Source: a virus (lineage: Duplodnaviria > Heunggongvirae > Uroviricota > Caudoviricetes). From it: a stretch of 7,039 nt of DNA. A model generated the notes under the pieces. The model saw nothing but the letters and a program-made list of their open reading frames with translations, made no database searches and had not been told where the DNA came from. Position 1 is the first letter of the stretch. Every line of letters starts with the position of its first letter. The position numbers and the translations under genes were made by a program. The stretch lies in IMG/VR virus record IMGVR_UViG_2671180986_000004. One strand, written 5' to 3'. Below are positions 135-7,039 of this stretch, piece after piece.

Positions 135-644
135 TTAGCTAAAAAAAGGCAACACGAAGCTAAAACTACCAACATAAAGTGCTGACCAGCTAGCAGCTGA
201 AATCAGACTCACTGTATACACTTTCACTGGATGAAGTTGCAACATTCCTGCCACCAAAGGAGCAATATAACGCAGCACGGCGATAAAGCGCGAAGTGAAA
301 AGTATTGACACAGAGTTATTTTGCAACTGAAGGCGAACCCGTTCTATTGTATTGGAACGGCTCGATATTATACATGCAAGTTGAGGGATATGCCCAATTA
401 TTATACCAAGATGGTAATTAACGATAGTACCGCACCATGCGCCACTCATGACCGTGATTCCAGCTTCCCATGGTGAAAGAGTCGTCTTGCTGACTGTAAT
501 TACAGTGGCCATCATAATTGATGCTGGTGGCAATATCGCCGAAATGAGTAAAGTGGATTTTGTGAACGCTATTATAAAAAGAAGCCCCCATAGGCGATAT
601 GGATGAAGTACAAAATAGTTCATCAAAGCATTTATCCACTCCAT
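135..644 (-). CDS. DedA/YqaA-family (VTT/SNARE-associated-like) inner membrane protein
   Basis: Stop-free ORF on the - strand with stop TAA (complement of 135-137). The ORF track starts at a TTG (645-647), but the next codon is ATG (complement of 642-644) with an AAGGA Shine-Dalgarno-like sequence about 9 nt upstream, so ATG is preferred. The protein is very hydrophobic with several predicted membrane segments and has a motif (RFIAVLRYIAPLVAGMLQL) matching the R-F-x-P-x-x-R...P-L-x-A-G pattern recalled for DedA/YqaA proteins. Family assignment is from memory. Confidence 0.5.
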   Translation of the reverse strand: MEWINALMNYFVLHPYRLWGLLFIIAFTKSTLLISAILPPASIMMATVITVSKTTLSPWEAGITVMSGAWCGTIVNYHLGIIIGHIPQLACIISSRSNTIERVRLQLQNNSVSILFTSRFIAVLRYIAPLVAGMLQLHPVKVYTVSLISAASWSALYVGSFSFVLPFFS

Positions 645-841
645 CAATGTCTTTCCTTCTGTGAATTTTTCTTTGCTATTTAACCGTGATACGACTTAAT
701 TTAGGCTTAAACACCTTACATTTACAAGGTACTCCTGTGGGGGGCCCTGCCACGGAGCGTCGCAGGAGTGAGTGATGAGGAAGAATTAAAGCAACCTATT
801 GTGACAGGCAGCGATAACAGTAAATCACAGGAAGCATAATC
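645..841. promoter_or_regulatory. Divergent intergenic region between the membrane-protein gene and terS; likely holds promoter(s) and the terS ribosome-binding site
   Basis: About 197 bp of non-coding sequence between divergent start codons. AGGAAG at 829-834 lies 7 nt upstream of the terS ATG (842). GTGACA at 801-806 is -35-like, but no convincing -10 at correct spacing was found by eye. No promoter is mapped with confidence. Confidence 0.25.
731..769. repeat. Perfect 7-bp inverted repeat (ACTCCTG ... CAGGAGT) with a 25-nt GC-rich spacer, about 70 bp upstream of terS
   Basis: Read directly: 731-737 ACTCCTG and 763-769 CAGGAGT are reverse complements; the spacer 738-762 is GC-rich (tggggggccctgccacggagcgtcgc). 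No T-tract follows, so it is not a typical intrinsic terminator. Confidence 0.6.
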
Positions 842-1606
842 ATGGCAAAACCGGACTGGGAGGCCATCGAATCGGCATACCGGGCCGGAGTCCTTAGCCT
901 CCGTGATATAGGCGAGAAATACGGCGTTACAGAAGGGGCTATCAGGAAGAGGGCCAAAAAGCTTGGTTGGGCACGCAGTGGCGGTACGCAGGTTTGCAAA
1001 AATGGTACGCAAAAAAGGAAAGTGCGTACCAGCAGAAAGCCTGCCATTACTGGCCTTACACAAAAAAGTACGCAACTAAAAACAGAATCTACACCGGATA
1101 CGAAACCGATACGCGGAATGCGTACCGATCCCCCGACTAACCCATTCCAACCCGGTAACCAGCAGGCATTAAAACACGGTGGTTATGCCCGTCGCCTTCT
1201 GCTCAAAGATGAGGTGATAGAGGACGCTAAAGCGTTGACGCTCGAGGACGAATTATTTCGCCTTCGTGCTAACAACCTTGTCGCTGCAGAGAATATTGGT
1301 CGGTGGTTGGTGTCGCTGGAAGATGCTAATGGGGACCAGGAAAGGAAGATGCTGATTGAAAATATCAGCGCCGCCGAGAAAGCAATGATGCGCAATACAG
1401 TTCGTATTGAGTCCATCGTTGGCACGCTTGCGACGGTAGGAAAAATATTTGCTGATACAGCCTACCGCAAGGCCGCCACTGATAAGGTGTCTCTGGAGGC
1501 TGATCGTCTTCGCCGTGATGCAGGTATTGATGATGGCAATGGAGAGCGTGACCTCAATGACTTCTACTCTGACATCCAAACCGACGCTGAATCCGGCTTT
1601 ACGTAG
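842..1606 (+). CDS. Phage terminase small subunit (N-terminal helix-turn-helix DNA-binding domain)
   Basis: ATG at 842 with AGGAAG ribosome-binding site at 829-834; 254 aa; stop TAG at 1604-1606. The N-terminus (LSLRDIGEKYGVTEGAIRKRAKKLGW, about nt 893-971) is a classic helix-turn-helix, followed by a basic linker and a helical C-terminal region, as in small terminase subunits. It sits directly upstream of and overlaps the terminase large subunit gene. Confidence 0.8.
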   Translation: MAKPDWEAIESAYRAGVLSLRDIGEKYGVTEGAIRKRAKKLGWARSGGTQVCKNGTQKRKVRTSRKPAITGLTQKSTQLKTESTPDTKPIRGMRTDPPTNPFQPGNQQALKHGGYARRLLLKDEVIEDAKALTLEDELFRLRANNLVAAENIGRWLVSLEDANGDQERKMLIENISAAEKAMMRNTVRIESIVGTLATVGKIFADTAYRKAATDKVSLEADRLRRDAGIDDGNGERDLNDFYSDIQTDAESGFT

Positions 1607-3099
1607 TTTCTGGACTATGCGGGCACGTAACAAAGTGCTTTATGGTGGTCGGTCATCGTCAAAATCATGGGATGCCGCTGGCATTGCCATATTTCTGTCG
1701 AATAAATACACCCTGCGTTTTTGTTGTGCCCGTCAGATCCAGAATAAAATCGAAGAGTCGGTGTATACCCTGCTCAAAATTCAGATAGACAGGTTTGGTC
1801 TGCGGCACCGTTTCCGTATTCTGAACAACAAAATCATTAACCGGGTTACTGGCTCGGAATTTGTTTTTTATGGATTATGGCGCAACATCGAAGAAATTAA
1901 GTCACTGGAGGGGATCGATGTGTTGTGGCTGGAAGAAGCCCACGCACTGACGGAATACCAGTGGAAAATTCTGGAGCCAACGATCCGTAAAGAGGGTTCG
2001 GAATGCTGGTTCATATTCAACCCCGGACTTGTTACTGATTTCGTCTGGCGCAACTTCGTTGTTGATCCGCCCGAAGGCACTCTCATCCGCAAAATTAACT
2101 ATGACGAAAATCCGTTTCTGTCTGACACCATGCTTAAGGTTATCGACGCGGCGCGACGCCGTGATNNNNNNNNNNNNNNNNNNNNNNNNNNNNNNNNNNN
2201 NNNNNNNNNNNNNNNNNNNNNNNNNNNNNNNNNNNNNNNNNNNNNNNNNNNNNNNNNNNNNNNNNNNNNNNNNNNNNNNNNNNNNNNNNNNNNNNNNNNN
2301 NNNNNNNNNNNNNNNNNNNNNNNNNNNNNNNNNNNNNNNNNNNNNNNNNNNNNNNNNNNNNNNNNNNNNNNNNNNNNNNNNNNNNNNNNNNNNNNNNNNN
2401 NNNNNNNNNNNNNNNNNNNNNNNNNNNNNNNNNNNNNNNNNNNNNNNNNNNNNNNNNNNNNNNNNNNNNNNNNNNNNNNNNNNNNNNNNNNNNNNNNNNN
2501 NNNNNNNNNNNNNNNNNNNNNNNNNNNNNNNNNNNNNNNNNNNNNNNNNNNNNNNNNNNNNNNNNNNNNNNNNNNNNNNNNNNNNNNNNNNNGCAGATAT
2601 TGTTTACGACTCTATCGGTGTTGGTGCGTCTGCCGGTGCTAAATTCTCTGAAATTAACGCTGACCGGAAGAGCGAGAACGCATACGCGCGACGTGTGAAT
2701 TACCAGAGGTTTAACGCCGGTGCTGGTGTGCATGAGCCAGATGACGAGTACAACGGCATCCCCAACAAAGACTTTTTCGCAAATCTTAAGGCTCAGGCAT
2801 GGTGGCTGGTGGCTGACCGTTTCAGAAATACGTTTAACGCCATTAACAACGGAGAACAGTATCCTGTGGATGAGCTGATCAGCATAGATTCTCGTTGTCC
2901 GTTGCTTGAAAAGCTGAAACTGGAACTGACAACACCTCATCGTGATTTCGACCGTAACGGACGTGTGATGGTCGAAAGTAAAAAAGACCTCGCAAAACGC
3001 GAGATACCGTCACCAAACGTTGCTGATGCATTCATTATGGCCTTCGCGCCAATCGATACATCGCTGGATATCTGGGAACAGCTGGGGAGACAGGCCTGA
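1557..3099 (+). CDS. Phage terminase large subunit (PBSX/Terminase_3-like ATPase plus C-terminal nuclease), interrupted by a masked N-run and with a coding-frame change across it
   Basis: Walker A-like VLYGGRSSSKS at about 1644-1667 and Walker B-like IDVLWLEE at 1914-1937 are in frame 0. After the N-run (2166-2592) the nuclease-like region (ADIVYDSIGVG ... ADAFIMAFAP) runs in frame +1 to TGA at 3097-3099. Start chosen at ATG 1557 (GGAG at 1541-1544, about 27 residues before the P-loop); the ORF-track start at 1449 is a TTG extension. ATG 1617 is an alternative start. The span 1557-3099 is 1543 nt, not a multiple of 3. Confidence 0.75.
2166..2592. other. Masked or unresolved sequence (427 N) inside the terminase large subunit gene
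   Basis: Contiguous run of n characters; content unknown. Confidence 0.95.
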
Positions 3100-4565
3100 T
3101 GGCACGAAACAAACAAGCCCTGCGGCGAACTGTGCAGGCCACAGCTGATGGTTATGAGAATTTTATTGCCCGCGTAGGGATGCAGACACCTAACCAGCAC
3201 TCAGCATCCACCTACCGGGCTAATTTCACCAGTCGTAACCGCATGCTGGTGGAATGGTCCTATCGTTCATCCTAGATCATCGGCGAAGCAGTCGATGCTA
3301 TCCCGGATGATATGACCCGCAAAGGCATTCGCATCACTTCGGAAATTGATGCAAAAGATCGTGGCATTCTCGAATCACAACTGGATGAGTTGCAAATCTG
3401 GGATGCGCTGAATGACGTGCTGAAATGGTCGCGCCTCTACGGCGGCGCGGTGGGTTTCATCATGATTGAGGGGTAGGCACCAATGACCCCGCTGCGACCC
3501 GAAACCATCGGTAAGGGCAAGTTTAAGGGGATTCTCCCGCTCGACCGCTGGATGGTCGACCCGGCACTGACCCGCCGCATTAAAGATATGGGGCCGGACC
3601 TGGGTAAACCTGAGTTTTACGATGTGGTGACCACAGCAACGGGAATTCCTGCCTGGCGCATTCATCACAGTCGCCTGATTCGCTTTGATGGCGTCACGTT
3701 GCCATTTCAGCAGAAGATGACCGAGAACGAATGGGGAATGTCGGTTGTAGAGCGTATCTGGGATCGTCTTACCGCGTTCGACAGCGCTACTGTCGGCGCG
3801 GCGCAGCTGGTCTACAAGGCGCATTTGCGTACCTACAGCGTGGAGAAGCTACGCGAGCTTATCGCACTTGGTGGTCCTGCGTATGAAGCGTTGCTGAAGA
3901 ATATCGACCTGATTCGACAGTTCCAGAGTAATGAAGGCATGACGCTCATGGACTCGCGGGATAAGTTTGAAACCCATCAGTACAGCTTCAGTGGTCTGGA
4001 TGACATCCTTTCGCAGTTTGTAGAACAGATTAGTGGCGCTGTTGGTATCCCACTGGTGCGGTTGTTCGGACAGTCCCCGAAAGGATTTTCTACCGGTGAT
4101 GCAGACCTTGCCAACTATTACGATCGCATCAGTTCGTTGCAGGAGAGGCGTTTACGTCTTCCGGTGCGGCGGATACTGGACATCATGCATCGTTCGGAAC
4201 TTGGCAAGCCGCTGCCGGACGATTTCACGTTTGAGTTTAACCCGCTCTGGCAAATGTCTGATGTCGATCGCTCAACGGTGGCGTTAAACACCACCAACGC
4301 AATCAGTACGGCGCTGGGTGATGGTCTGATGACACTGAAAGCCGCTATGACTGATTTGCGAGAAAATTCTGACGTAACCGGCATCGGGGCATCCATTACC
4401 GACGAGGAAATCGAGAATGCCGAAGATGAAGCGCCGCCCGGCATCGGCGAACCTGATGACGAACCGCAGGAGCCGTCAGGCGGAAATCCGGTATCGAACC
4501 AGCCTACGCAGGATAGCGAGGGCGGTCGGAGACATCGTAAATGGTCGCTACGATGGTTCAAATGA
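3099..4565 (+). CDS. Phage portal protein reading frame (possibly DUF1073-like); stop-free from ATG 3483, with the N-terminal ~128 codons in the same frame interrupted by two in-frame TAG codons (3273-3275, 3474-3476); possible pseudogene or suppressed amber codons
   Basis: ATG at 3099-3101 overlaps the terminase large TGA (3097-3099) in an ATGA-type junction. Translating frame 0 from 3099 gives MARNKQALRRTVQATADGYENFIARVGMQTPNQHSASTYRANFTSRNRMLVEWSYRSS-TAG-IIGEAVDAIPDDMTRKGIRITSEIDAKDRGILESQLDELQIWDALNDVLKWSRLYGGAVGFIMIEG-TAG-APMTPLRPETIGKGKF..., continuous with the 360-aa ORF 3483-4565. Total about 488 codons, typical of a portal; the stop-free 360-aa part alone would be short. Position after the terminase and the acidic C-terminal tail fit a portal. 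Family name is from memory. Confidence 0.7.
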
Positions 4566-5277
4566 CAGTATCACGGAAATTATTGCGGCGCTGGAGCGTT
4601 ACAGTGAAATCATCACCCCCTGGGCGACAAAGGTCGCGGAAAACTTTACTGCGGACCTAACCCGGCAGAACGAGAAAGTTTGGCGGCAACACAGCAAGAA
4701 CATCAGTCGCGANNNNNNNNNNNNNNNNNNNNNNNNNNNNNNNNNNNNNNNNNNNNNNNNNNNNNNNNNNNNNNNNNNNNNNNNNNNNNNNNNNNNNNNN
4801 NNNNNNNNNNNNNNNNNNNNNNNNNNNNNNNNNNNNNNNNNNNNNNNNNNNNNNNNNNNNNNNNNNNNNNNNNNNNNNNNNNNNNNNNNNNNNNNNNNNN
4901 NNNNNNNNNNNNNNNNNNNNNNNNNNNNNNNNNNNNNNNNNNNNNNNNNNNNNNNNNNNNNNNNNNNNNNNNNNNNNNNNNNNNNNNNNNNNNNNNNNNN
5001 NNNNNNNNNNNNNNNNNNNNNNNNNNNNNNNNNNNNNNNNNNNNNNNNNNNNNNNNNNNNNNNNNNNNNNNNNNNNNNNNNNNNNNNNNNNNNNNNNNNN
5101 NNNNNNNATGGCGATGTCCGAGATTCCCACGATCACATGAAAGGTAAATTCGTCCGCTGGGATTCACCTCCAACTTTGGACGGCATGACCGGCCACGCGG
5201 GCGAGCTGCCAAACTGCCGCTGCTATAAAGAGATCGTGTTTGTTCGCGTTCCATTCGCAATGAAAAGGGCAGCATAA
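4417..5277 (+). CDS. Phage head morphogenesis protein (Mu F-like / SPP1 gp7-like minor head protein), containing a masked N-run
   Basis: The C-terminal segment after the N-run contains HAGELPNCRCY (PNCRC at 5209-5223), matching the conserved motif recalled for the Phage_Mu_F domain. Frame +1 is coherent on both sides of the mask. Stop TAA at 5275-5277, 3 nt before the next gene. The start is uncertain: in-frame ATGs at 4417 (GAGG 9 nt upstream), 4426 and 4456, all inside the portal gene; no in-frame ATG/GTG/TTG exists between 4459 and the mask. Confidence 0.75.
   Translation: MPKMKRRPASANLMTNRRSRQAEIRYRTSLRRIARAVGDIVNGRYDGSNDSITEIIAALERYSEIITPWATKVAENFTADLTRQNEKVWRQHSKNISRXXXXXXXXXXXXXXXXXXXXXXXXXXXXXXXXXXXXXXXXXXXXXXXXXXXXXXXXXXXXXXXXXXXXXXXXXXXXXXXXXXXXXXXXXXXXXXXXXXXXXXXXXXXXXXXXXXXXXXXXXXXXXXXXXXXXXGDVRDSHDHMKGKFVRWDSPPTLDGMTGHAGELPNCRCYKEIVFVRVPFAMKRAA
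4713..5107. other. Masked or unresolved sequence (395 N) inside the head morphogenesis gene
   Basis: Contiguous run of n characters; content unknown. Confidence 0.95.
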
Positions 5278-5280
5278 CCC

Positions 5281-6501
5281 ATGAAATACTTTTTTGAGAC
5301 CAGGCTCGGGGAAACCCGATACCGCCTGGCTGACGGCTCGTTGCTGTGCAAAGACGTGCCGATAGGACGAACAGGTAAGCAGCTCTATGGTGCTGATGAC
5401 CTGCCAAAACTGAAACCCGATAAGTTCGGTGAAATAGTCGTCACGCGTTCTCCTGAGCAGGTATTCCATCCGGCCACGCTTGCCTCATTCGAAGGGATGA
5501 GCATCACGATCCTGCATCCTGAAGATGAAAACGGGAATGTGCGGCTGGTAAATCCCGAGAACTGGAAAGAGCTTGCTGTCGGGCACCTCCAGAATGTCCG
5601 GCGCGGGACGGGTGAGCAGTCTGATTTGATGCTGGCTGACCTTATCGTCAAAGACGAAAGCGCCATTCAGCTTATCGAAGATGGCCTGCGCGAAGTGTCG
5701 TGCGGCTATGACGCGGAGTACGAGCAGACCGAGCCAGGTAAAGCCGAGCAGGTCGATATTACCGGAAACCATGTGGCTCTTGTCCCTAAAGGCAGAGCCG
5801 GAAATCGTTGTGCAATTGGAGACAGAGACACAATGGCAAATCAAAAGAAAAACTGGTGGAACCGCATGCGTGCGGCCATCAAGACAGGAGATGCCGACAC
5901 CATGAACGAACTGGTGGAGTCGGCTCCCGCATCGGTTACAGGAGATGAGGGGGATTTGCCGCAGGGCGTTAATCTCAACATCAACCTGTCCCCGCAGCAA
6001 CCACTACCGGACAAAGCACCAGAGATGGGCGGAGATCCAACCGGCGACAGTGATGATGACCTCAAAACATTACTGAAAGCCCTGCTGGCTAAGCTGGAAA
6101 GAAATGCCACGGGCGATAACGATAATAAGCCTGACGATAATCCGACCGGTGACGGCGAGGACGATGAAGAGGAAACCACGATTACTGGTGACTCAGCCTG
6201 GCGTGCCGAAGTTATCGTTCCGGGTATCGATCTGAGCCGTAAGATGAAACCGACCGCGTTCAAACGCGAGGTTCTGGCTTCTGCTGACAAAACGCTGGTT
6301 CGCCAGATAGTCGGTGATGCGGATATCCGCAAATTACCGAAACAATCGGTCGACATGGCGTTTAATGCCGTGTCTGAGGTTGCCAAAGGGCGAAACACCC
6401 GCGCCACCACCGGCGATGCACAGCGCCTAAACATGGGCATGACCAGTATCGCTTCCCTGAACAAACAAAACGCTGAATTCTGGGCAAACCGTAAAGGGTA
6501 A
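5281..6501 (+). CDS. Phage head-assembly protein, possibly DUF2213-like; putative scaffolding protein with an acidic low-complexity C-terminal half
   Basis: ATG at 5281, 3 nt after the upstream stop; 406 aa; stop TAA at 6499-6501. The N-terminal ~190 aa form a globular-looking domain; the C-terminal half is Asp/Glu-rich, helical-looking, with recurring TGD motifs. Its position between the head-morphogenesis gene and small head-protein genes suits a scaffold or prohead-processing role. Function is inferred from context and recalled family resemblance. Confidence 0.6.
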   Translation: MKYFFETRLGETRYRLADGSLLCKDVPIGRTGKQLYGADDLPKLKPDKFGEIVVTRSPEQVFHPATLASFEGMSITILHPEDENGNVRLVNPENWKELAVGHLQNVRRGTGEQSDLMLADLIVKDESAIQLIEDGLREVSCGYDAEYEQTEPGKAEQVDITGNHVALVPKGRAGNRCAIGDRDTMANQKKNWWNRMRAAIKTGDADTMNELVESAPASVTGDEGDLPQGVNLNINLSPQQPLPDKAPEMGGDPTGDSDDDLKTLLKALLAKLERNATGDNDNKPDDNPTGDGEDDEEETTITGDSAWRAEVIVPGIDLSRKMKPTAFKREVLASADKTLVRQIVGDADIRKLPKQSVDMAFNAVSEVAKGRNTRATTGDAQRLNMGMTSIASLNKQNAEFWANRKG

Positions 6502-6504
6502 AAA

Positions 6505-7011
6505 ATGAATAATGTATTTCTGTACCGGATGCCTGTTGGCATTGCCGGGGCTGTCTCTCGCCCGCAGGACTTAACCGTCGAACCGGTGGTCCTTAAATCC
6601 GATAACGCCTTCGCTGCCTATGGCCTGGCTGGTAAATACGATGATGACGGTTTTTTCGTGCCGCTGGCAGATGGTGATACCGCAGACAAGGTGAAGGGGA
6701 TCTACGTGCGCCCTTATCCGACCACGTCGCAGCCGGACATGGTTCGCCAGGTGGGAACAGGCAAGAACTTCCCGGGCGACGCCATGAAGCGTGGCTACGT
6801 GACCGTTAATCTCGGTTCTGATTTTGATGCCAGCACTATCAAAAAAGGCGATCCGGTATACGTTGTCGTCTCCACTGATGAATCCATCAAAGTGCCGCTG
6901 GGTGGATTCATGTCCACGTCAGTCAGTGGCAAAAACGTGGTGCTGACCAACGCTGAATTCACAGGTGCCGGTGATGCTGACGGCAATGCAGAAATTTCCT
7001 GGAAGATTTAA
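6505..7011 (+). CDS. Small phage head structural protein (putative decoration/cement-type protein)
   Basis: ATG at 6505 with AAAGGG 8-9 nt upstream, 3 nt after the preceding stop; 168 aa; stop TAA at 7009-7011. Gly/Val/Asp-rich, beta-strand-like composition and location just before the window end, where a major capsid gene would be expected. Function is inferred from synteny only. Confidence 0.5.
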   Translation: MNNVFLYRMPVGIAGAVSRPQDLTVEPVVLKSDNAFAAYGLAGKYDDDGFFVPLADGDTADKVKGIYVRPYPTTSQPDMVRQVGTGKNFPGDAMKRGYVTVNLGSDFDASTIKKGDPVYVVVSTDESIKVPLGGFMSTSVSGKNVVLTNAEFTGAGDADGNAEISWKI

Positions 7012-7039
7012 GGAACAGACGAATGAGGTGATGCTGCCA

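Follow-up and report, generated by a model that had tools for sequence, protein, structure and literature searches.

A portal pseudogene with two amber codons in a prophage remnant of Shigella sonnei

The portal gene of a prophage in Shigella sonnei is interrupted by two in-frame amber codons and is very probably an ordinary pseudogene, lying in a prophage remnant riddled with insertion sequences (IS), struck by two GC>AT nonsense mutations and subject to no special decoding. The finding is one of routine gene decay. The window (the whole stretch of 7,039 nt that was analysed) is the entire draft contig CXDQ01000201.1, whose proteins carry Shigella sonnei as their source name; the element that hosts it is a lambdoid, ipaH-type prophage situated next to pgl in the S. 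sonnei chromosome.

The portal gene and its neighbours

The gene order, terS-terL-portal-MuF-DUF2213-cement-DUF2184 capsid, is common to SEN34-like and related E. coli temperate phages. A gene for a DedA/VTT-domain membrane protein (PF09335; positions 135-647, minus strand) is carried as cargo between the lysis cassette and the terminase genes, and is also present in intact relatives. On the plus strand, on which all the other genes and sequence changes described here are located, there follow: an intact gene in the position of the small terminase (terS, 842-1606, assigned from the open reading frame list and its position), which ends in TAG, has no Pfam match and is annotated 'hypothetical protein' in relatives; the large terminase gene, terL (1557-3099; PF04466); the portal gene (3099-4565); the Mu F-like head morphogenesis gene, MuF (4456-5277; PF04233); and two intact genes, for a DUF2213 head protein (5281-6501, from the open reading frame list and a profile match) and for a capsid cement or minor capsid protein (6505-7011; PF22758 and PF23982). 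Two scaffold gaps lie in this series, both wrongly sized: 427 N stand for 288 real bp at 2166-2592, and 395 N for 317 bp at 4713-5107. An insertion or frameshift in terL behind the 427-N gap is ruled out: the apparent terL frameshift arises because the N runs are wrong gap estimates, and N-free sister contigs have both terL and MuF intact (as open reading frames of 467 and 247 aa, respectively, in contig L003).

The portal frame, 1467 nt long, begins at an ATG (3099) that overlaps the terL stop and ends with the TGA at 4563-4565; the MuF, DUF2213 and cement genes come after it. An earlier note on this DNA had seen here one portal frame broken only by two TAG codons, and direct reading together with gapless alignment to intact 488-aa DUF1073 portal genes confirms it, with no frameshifts. 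The first amber stop (3273-3275) is at codon 59, which relatives read as TGG (Trp59) and which became TAG by G>A at 3274; the second (3474-3476) is at codon 126, CAG (Gln126) in relatives, changed by C>T at 3474. Three pieces can be distinguished: a 58-aa N-terminal fragment (3099-3275), called as a gene of its own in assemblies; a 54-aa fragment between the stops (3312-3476), corresponding to residues 72-125 of the intact protein; and a residual C-terminal open reading frame of 360 aa (3483-4565), in which, as the earlier note had it, all 360 codons are open in translation.

The gene belongs to the family of PF06381 (Phage_portal_3), DUF1073 and TIGR01555 (the HI1409 family). An intact relative of the same length matches PF06381 with 355.4 bits over aa 55-402 (cut-off 33.8), TIGR01555 with 255.1 bits (cut-off 196.25) and the phrog_146 'portal protein' profile with 583 bits; the 360-aa fragment of the window matches PF06381 with 274.5 bits, starting no earlier than profile position 84. 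The PF06381 domain takes in both amber codons (59 and 126), and a single open reading frame spanning the whole domain is absent from the window. This copy is a pseudogene of the PF06381/TIGR01555 family and not a functional member of it. With the SEN34-like (Brunovirus) and related phages it shares the gene order and the strong HMM match; in contrast to theirs, it is stop-interrupted and encodes no full-length protein, and its element lacks the capsid gene and every tail gene.

Ancestral codons and the spread of the stops

The nearest intact relatives are E. coli prophages with 99.7% identity, and these read TGG (Trp59) and CAG (Gln126) at the two amber positions; among the E. coli complete genomes with the gene (n = 382), none matches above 99.7%. 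The same pair of sense codons is present in all seven relatives compared base by base: E. coli FDAARGOS_944, FDAARGOS_943, VL40, A34 and the ETEC strain H10407, phage vB_EcoM-606R2 (with three siblings, one of four E. coli phage records at 98.0% nucleotide identity, of which one was read base by base) and Salmonella phage SEN34 (85% nucleotide identity). Among 63 IMG/VR relatives, codon 59 is TGG in 57, TAG in four (all S. sonnei-type contigs) and uncovered in two; codon 126 is CAG in 59, including the S. dysenteriae-type copy. TGG and CAG occur together, with no in-frame stop, in 57 of these relatives (the codon-by-codon stop scan comprising the 53 that align without gaps), and the TAG/TAG combination is confined to the four S. 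sonnei-type contigs. Since all relatives have the sense codons TGG and CAG, both stops are derived GC>AT transitions. The observation in the earlier note that each TAG is one transition away from TGG or CAG is borne out by these closest intact relatives, which have TGG at one position and CAG at the other, and alignment to portal homologs accordingly places Trp and Gln there.

That the stops might be errors of sequencing or assembly is a suspicion that a low-quality, scaffolded draft with two N-filled and wrongly sized gaps could well arouse. However, the same two TAGs are present in independent isolates and in complete genomes, in all in approximately 2,700 index blocks of the assembly collection. 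The exact 58-aa peptide, which goes by the name 'putative bacteriophage protein [Shigella sonnei]', is found in at least 1000 contigs; counted by index blocks, it is present in 2,737 and the exact 54-aa peptide in 2,758. Complete chromosomes among the carriers are HE616528.1, CP044191.1, CP019689.1 and CP022672.1, and the sister contigs of other isolates are identical at both stops. The stops are not assembly errors, because independent assemblies and complete chromosomes agree; this concordance refutes sequencing error at the TAG sites, and the probability left to an artefact is negligible.

No S. sonnei assembly examined lacks either stop, even where the genome departs from the others elsewhere in the element; the stops are therefore probably older than the diversification of the sampled S. 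sonnei. Across these assemblies both TAG alleles have been inherited vertically. An exact search for the two amber alleles in a species-representative genome collection, in which S. sonnei probably has no separate representative, gave no match. The two TAGs, or the IS1 junction described below, could be S. sonnei-specific markers.

Termination, readthrough and re-initiation

The portal TAGs most likely do nothing other than terminate translation. The converse proposition is that they are decoded, as Trp, Gln or another amino acid, by a suppressor tRNA of host or phage, so that full-length portal protein is made; it draws on the amber identity of both stops, on the 360 codons that are still open beyond them, and on the fact that the only TAG terminator in the window, that of terS, is backed by a TAA 8 codons on. 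However, an open downstream frame is to be expected at a divergence of ~0.2%, and that both stops are amber is unremarkable because TAG is the likeliest nonsense outcome, making up 57% of those from GC>AT changes. The arrangement at the end of terS (TAG at 1604-1606, in-frame TAA at 1628-1630) is present as the earlier note described it, but it has no bearing on the matter: the closest intact relative, where the portal gene has no internal stop, does not differ by a single base in this stretch, which is for that reason uninformative. TAG is still a true terminator of terS, as it is in that relative.

No tRNA gene lies within the 7-kb window. In-frame TAG codons were looked for in the other genes of the element and there are none, terS, terL, MuF, DUF2213 and cement all being clean open reading frames. 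Moreover, with the capsid, tail and fibre genes lost by deletion, a full-length portal protein would be devoid of assembly partners; making it by suppression would be pointless because there is no virion to build. A search of the literature for natural amber suppressors together with prophages gave no match. The suppression option of the earlier note thus finds no support and is highly improbable; the locus provides no evidence for alternative decoding.

Two known systems offer superficially similar codons. In stop-codon-recoded phages (crAss-like, Lak), TAG is read as an amino acid, and they and the window alike have a late structural gene with TAG codons in frame. Here, in contrast, there are only two TAGs, in one gene, with no suppressor tRNA in the window; the ancestral codons, at 99.7% identity, are ordinary sense codons, and the host is a standard-code enterobacterium. 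TGG>TAG and CAG>TAG are likewise the transitions by which an essential head gene is classically altered in laboratory amber (sus) mutants, which are propagated on supE or supF hosts. The window has the same transitions in the same kind of gene; unlike the laboratory mutants, it represents clinical S. sonnei chromosomes worldwide, and a particle-incapable remnant with no sign of phage propagation.

A second way of rescuing the locus is to suppose that it is naturally split, with small upstream genes and a 360-aa portal starting at 3483, or that the 360-aa product is functional and has been retained. The Shine-Dalgarno-like GAGGGG at 3468-3473 (a reading of the sequence), 9 nt upstream of the ATG at 3483, would suit such re-initiation, and gene callers annotate a 360-aa protein not only in S. 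sonnei but also in S. dysenteriae. Against this, the PF06381 domain occupies residues 55-402 of the intact protein, and the 360-aa frame enters the profile late; the gene is a single uninterrupted open reading frame in the seven relatives compared base by base and in the 53 scanned IMG/VR relatives; and the S. dysenteriae call has another cause, truncation by IS1 at approximately portal nt 307, with CAG126 intact. With stops located inside the domain and an uninterrupted frame in every covering relative outside S. sonnei, the natural split portal is contradicted, and there is very little likelihood in either form of the proposal.

The S. dysenteriae gene is of interest in its own right. An IMG/VR locus retrieved with a window-derived pattern (L072) encodes the exact S. 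dysenteriae 360-aa protein. The notion that the amber alleles are common to S. dysenteriae Sd197, through the spread of an amber-bearing phage, is rejected, as this locus has CAG126 intact and is IS1-truncated. The S. dysenteriae copy was inactivated independently of that in S. sonnei, and its four private missense changes fit drift. The locus is a small, clean case of parallel prophage decay, by nonsense mutation in S. sonnei and by IS1 truncation in S. dysenteriae.

Decay of the prophage and the question of selection

The portal stops are not the only lesions. Comparison with the loci L001 and L033 identifies ATGA at 7023-7026 as all that is left (the last 4 nt) of the gene for the major capsid protein, DUF2184 in relatives, which is truncated by the terminus of an IS1 element at 7027-7039, the contig end; the junction is 48 nt longer in sister contigs, and in complete genomes it is followed by the InsA and IS1 transposase open reading frames. 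In complete S. sonnei genomes, this IS1 replaces 19,075 bp of intact-prophage DNA containing the major capsid, neck, tail, baseplate, fibre and ipaH genes. The 3' end of the holin gene is occupied by an IS2-like insertion of 1331 bp, the interval from the Q antiterminator gene to the lysis genes contains more IS elements, and one S. sonnei strain has an additional IS630-family insertion. The prophage is non-functional independently of the portal stops, by virtue of the IS1 element with its deletion and the IS2 in the holin gene; the other head genes (terS, terL, MuF, DUF2213 and cement) are still intact open reading frames in this isolate, and the decay is thus uneven. A prophage of the same type in E. 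coli FDAARGOS_943 has terL interrupted by IS2 and MuF by an internal stop. IS-driven pseudogenisation is, according to PMC8072062, typical of Shigella.

Derived substitutions in the head module are few. In addition to its stops, the portal gene has C>T at 4021 (Ala308Val), common to all S. sonnei copies examined, and C>A at 4409 (Asp437Glu), private to this isolate group: in sum, 2 nonsense, 1-2 missense and 0 synonymous changes. The terS gene has one derived change, synonymous, at 1300, which is its sole difference from the closest intact relative, and the DUF2213 gene has one that is nonsynonymous, at 6488 (Ser403Asn). GC>AT transitions constitute five of the six shared changes in the module. 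In the head module, a stop would result from 3.5% of all the substitutions that could occur and from 4.9% of the GC>AT transitions; the probability of two or more stops among 5-6 derived changes is ~0.02, before allowing for post-hoc selection. Two stops among so few changes, both in one gene, are mildly unusual.

The following account is very probably correct. Two independent GC>AT transitions converted TGG to TAG at Trp59 and CAG to TAG at Gln126, and the stops have passed vertically through S. sonnei. IS1 and its 19-kb deletion stripped away the capsid-to-fibre and ipaH genes, and IS2 struck the holin gene; the portal gene, free of selection because there is no virion to assemble, gathers nonsense and missense changes. 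The genomes compared show directly which codons are ancestral, how widely the amber alleles are spread, what further lesions exist and that relatives are intact; the order of the stops and the IS1 deletion, and the lack of translation through the stops, are what we infer. The suggestion of the earlier note that this is an inactivated head gene of a defective prophage is strongly supported by the ancestral TGG and CAG and by the several lesions; its 'very recent' is true only on an evolutionary scale.

Had the portal knockouts instead been favoured because they stopped virion production (a domestication of the prophage, not a neutral sequel to the IS1 deletion), the presence of more nonsense changes than neutrality predicts (P as above) and their gathering in one gene would be accounted for, and the independent disabling of this prophage type in S. 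dysenteriae and in E. coli FDAARGOS_943 would fall into place. On the other hand, a portal knockout leaves induction and lysis possible, and it is hard to see what the host would gain; the counts are low, and it was for its odd look that the finding was picked, post hoc; the lesions that arose independently elsewhere are of the IS kind that characterises decay throughout Shigella; and no intermediate allele that would order the events was found among the E. coli complete genomes and IMG/VR relatives. Selected inactivation is accordingly unlikely. Also quite unlikely is the composite proposal that the ambers preceded the IS1 deletion and were selected for domestication, or that the putative 360-aa open reading frame is expressed in a non-virion role; were it true, selection or a retained frame would explain two nonsense hits in one gene at ~0.2% divergence with its neighbours intact.

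Ordinary decay of the portal gene, by comparison, has ample precedent in the nonsense pseudogenes of cryptic Shigella and E. coli prophages, with which the window shares derived stops at sense codons of relatives, several IS insertions, an IS-mediated deletion, vertical inheritance, a GC>AT bias and portal changes that are all nonsense or missense. Nothing essential sets it apart from these; the one slightly unusual feature is that a gene of such low divergence was hit twice by nonsense mutation. The significance of the locus is mainly one of annotation. The 58-, 54- and 360-aa 'putative bacteriophage protein' open reading frames in thousands of S. sonnei assemblies are one dead portal gene; in at least one instance such a piece has the exact extent of a reference family, the 54-aa fragment being the whole of the 54-position profile phrog_28295.

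The portal reading frame and the codons its stops replaced

The DUF1073 portal gene has become a pseudogene through ordinary nonsense mutation, within a prophage remnant degraded by IS elements. It is found in this state in every S. sonnei assembly examined. Direct reading gives a single frame, from ATG at 3099 through TAG at 3273-3275 and TAG at 3474-3476 to TGA at 4563-4565, and over its 1467 nt it aligns gap-free with intact 488-aa DUF1073 proteins that annotators have recorded in prophages and phages of E. coli; the coordinates of the earlier note, and its statement that there is no frameshift, are thus correct. The nearest intact relatives, in E. coli FDAARGOS_944, FDAARGOS_943 and VL40 (99.7% identity across the portal gene), have TGG and CAG at codons 59 and 126, respectively. 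So do E. coli A34, ETEC H10407, phage vB_EcoM-606R2 (98.0%) and Salmonella phage SEN34 (85%). Among 63 IMG/VR relatives, retrieved with a conserved pattern taken from the window, 57 carry TGG and CAG, and a codon-by-codon scan of the 53 of these that align gap-free finds no in-frame stop; the remaining six comprise four S. sonnei-type contigs with TAG at both codons and two that lack codon 59. Because the relatives read TGG and CAG, each stop is a derived change of one base by transition (G>A at 3274, C>T at 3474), which bears out the proposal that each TAG lies one transition from TGG or CAG.

The PF06381 portal domain spans residues 55-402 of the intact protein, and both stops therefore lie inside it; TIGR01555 and phrog_146 ('portal protein') concur with this assignment. 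The suggestion that the portal is split, with a start at 3483, is contradicted by the position of the stops within the domain. The 360-aa ORF from 3483 begins to match PF06381 only at profile position 84, and a naturally split portal is excluded. Two matters of nomenclature attach to the fragments. The profile phrog_28295 ('unknown function', 54 profile positions) corresponds exactly to residues 72-125 of the intact portal, the fragment flanked by the two ambers (window 3312-3476), and by virtue of this coincidence it appears to have been built from pieces of the portal pseudogene. NCBI gives some fragments of DUF1073-family portals the name 'anti-CBASS protein Acb1 family protein', an odd fit with the Pfam and PHROGs portal assignment.

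The source contig and its S. sonnei relatives

Exact-protein look-up shows the window to be contig CXDQ01000201.1 in full (assembly GCA_001252575.1), the proteins of which bear the source name 'putative bacteriophage protein [Shigella sonnei]'. Two sister contigs from other isolates contain no N and match all three non-N blocks exactly, so that the N runs at 2166-2592 (427 N for 288 bp of real sequence) and 4713-5107 (395 N for 317 bp) are scaffold gaps. Both terL and the Mu F-like gene are intact in these gap-free contigs, at 467 and 247 aa respectively; the apparent terL frameshift at the first gap is produced by the wrong-size N run. Exact copies of the 58-aa and 54-aa fragment peptides occur in 2,737 and 2,758 index blocks of the assembly collection, respectively, each on at least 1000 contigs, and in complete chromosomes that include HE616528.1, CP044191.1, CP019689.1 and CP022672.1. 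Thousands of concordant assemblies refute assembly error. At five other sites within the element, the S. sonnei complete genomes are distinct from the isolate group of the window, yet they have both stops, which are for this reason probably older than the diversification of sampled S. sonnei. None of 382 E. coli complete genomes carrying the gene exceeds 99.7% identity to it, and no intermediate allele was seen among E. coli complete genomes and IMG/VR relatives.

From terS to the cement gene, six derived substitutions are common to the S. sonnei copies relative to intact relatives. Three fall in the portal gene (W59*, Q126*, A308V), terS and terL have one synonymous change each, and DUF2213 has S403N. 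All but one of the six are GC>AT transitions; portal D437E is an additional change of the window's isolate group. Stops would be created by 3.5% of all possible substitutions in the head module and by 4.9% of GC>AT transitions, and the probability of two or more in 5-6 changes is ~0.02. That both are amber is unremarkable, since TAG accounts for 57% of GC>AT nonsense outcomes. Selection for portal inactivation would account for such an excess, but the excess is mild and the finding was picked after the fact, leaving this explanation a small chance. Upstream of the window, an Rz-like lysis gene (L001 668-887) has five S. sonnei-specific substitutions within 220 bp, four of them missense; this cluster, denser than the rest of the element, could reflect a small recombination patch or relaxed selection.

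IS damage and the readthrough alternative

The window closes with the first 13 bases (7027-7039) of an IS1 element, which interrupts the major capsid gene after 4 nt. Downstream of it in complete S. sonnei genomes lies a 43-aa serine-recombinase (invertase) remnant, whose Resolvase match (E 4e-4) is weak and falls short of the Pfam cut-off, followed by chromosomal pgl and ybhD. In the intact FDAARGOS_944 prophage, the interval from the cement gene to the same invertase remnant contains the DUF2184 capsid gene, genes for neck, sheath-type tail, baseplate and fibres, and ipaHb; alignment shows that 19,075 bp of this interval have been replaced by IS1 in S. sonnei (L015 13847-14618). At the other end, a 1331-bp IS2-like element whose junction has a 5-bp overlap interrupts the holin gene in its 3' end, and further IS elements lie between the Q antiterminator gene and the lysis genes. 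The element is unable to make a virion, and its portal gene is consequently free of selection. Of the explanations that the earlier note entertained, inactivation of a head gene in a defective prophage is the right one, given the derived stops, the IS1-associated loss and the interrupted holin gene.

That the TAGs are suppressed, read through or recoded, as was also proposed, is unsupported: the window has no tRNA gene, in-frame TAG is confined to the portal gene in the window and sister contigs, the closest intact relative likewise has a TAG terminator in terS and the TAA behind it, and a full-length portal would be useless once capsid and tail genes have been deleted.

Two further features of this region may be recorded. 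A second IS1 lies nearby in place of ybhH-ybhI. The T3SS effector gene ipaHb (L033 16861-18687) is located between the tail-fibre genes and the invertase remnant beside pgl in FDAARGOS_944; a strain labelled E. coli has a Shigella/EIEC-type effector on its prophage, and this copy was lost in the S. sonnei deletion.

Decay of related prophages

A 360-aa ORF, 98% identical, is present in S. dysenteriae Sd197 as well. An S. dysenteriae-type copy (IMGVR_UViG_2609459817_000001, reverse strand 1-1190) encodes the Sd197 protein exactly, with CAG126 intact, four private missense changes and an IS1 end that truncates the portal gene at about nt 307. An amber-bearing phage common to S. dysenteriae is rejected on these grounds; since this copy keeps CAG126 and is truncated by IS1, it represents an independent inactivation in a second Shigella lineage. 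The near-identical prophage of E. coli FDAARGOS_943 has an intact portal, but its terL is interrupted by IS2 and its MuF gene by an internal stop (L007 1462-4201, 5558-6301). One prophage type has decayed by different routes. In S. sonnei CP022672.1 (L030 2910-3941) an extra IS630-family (DDE_3) transposase gene lies inside the 58-aa N-terminal portal fragment. Shigella genomes are known for IS-driven pseudogenisation (PMC8072062). Between the lysis cassette and the terminase genes, a gene for a DedA/VTT-domain membrane protein (135-647, minus strand) is kept in intact relatives and has the look of phage cargo (a moron gene).
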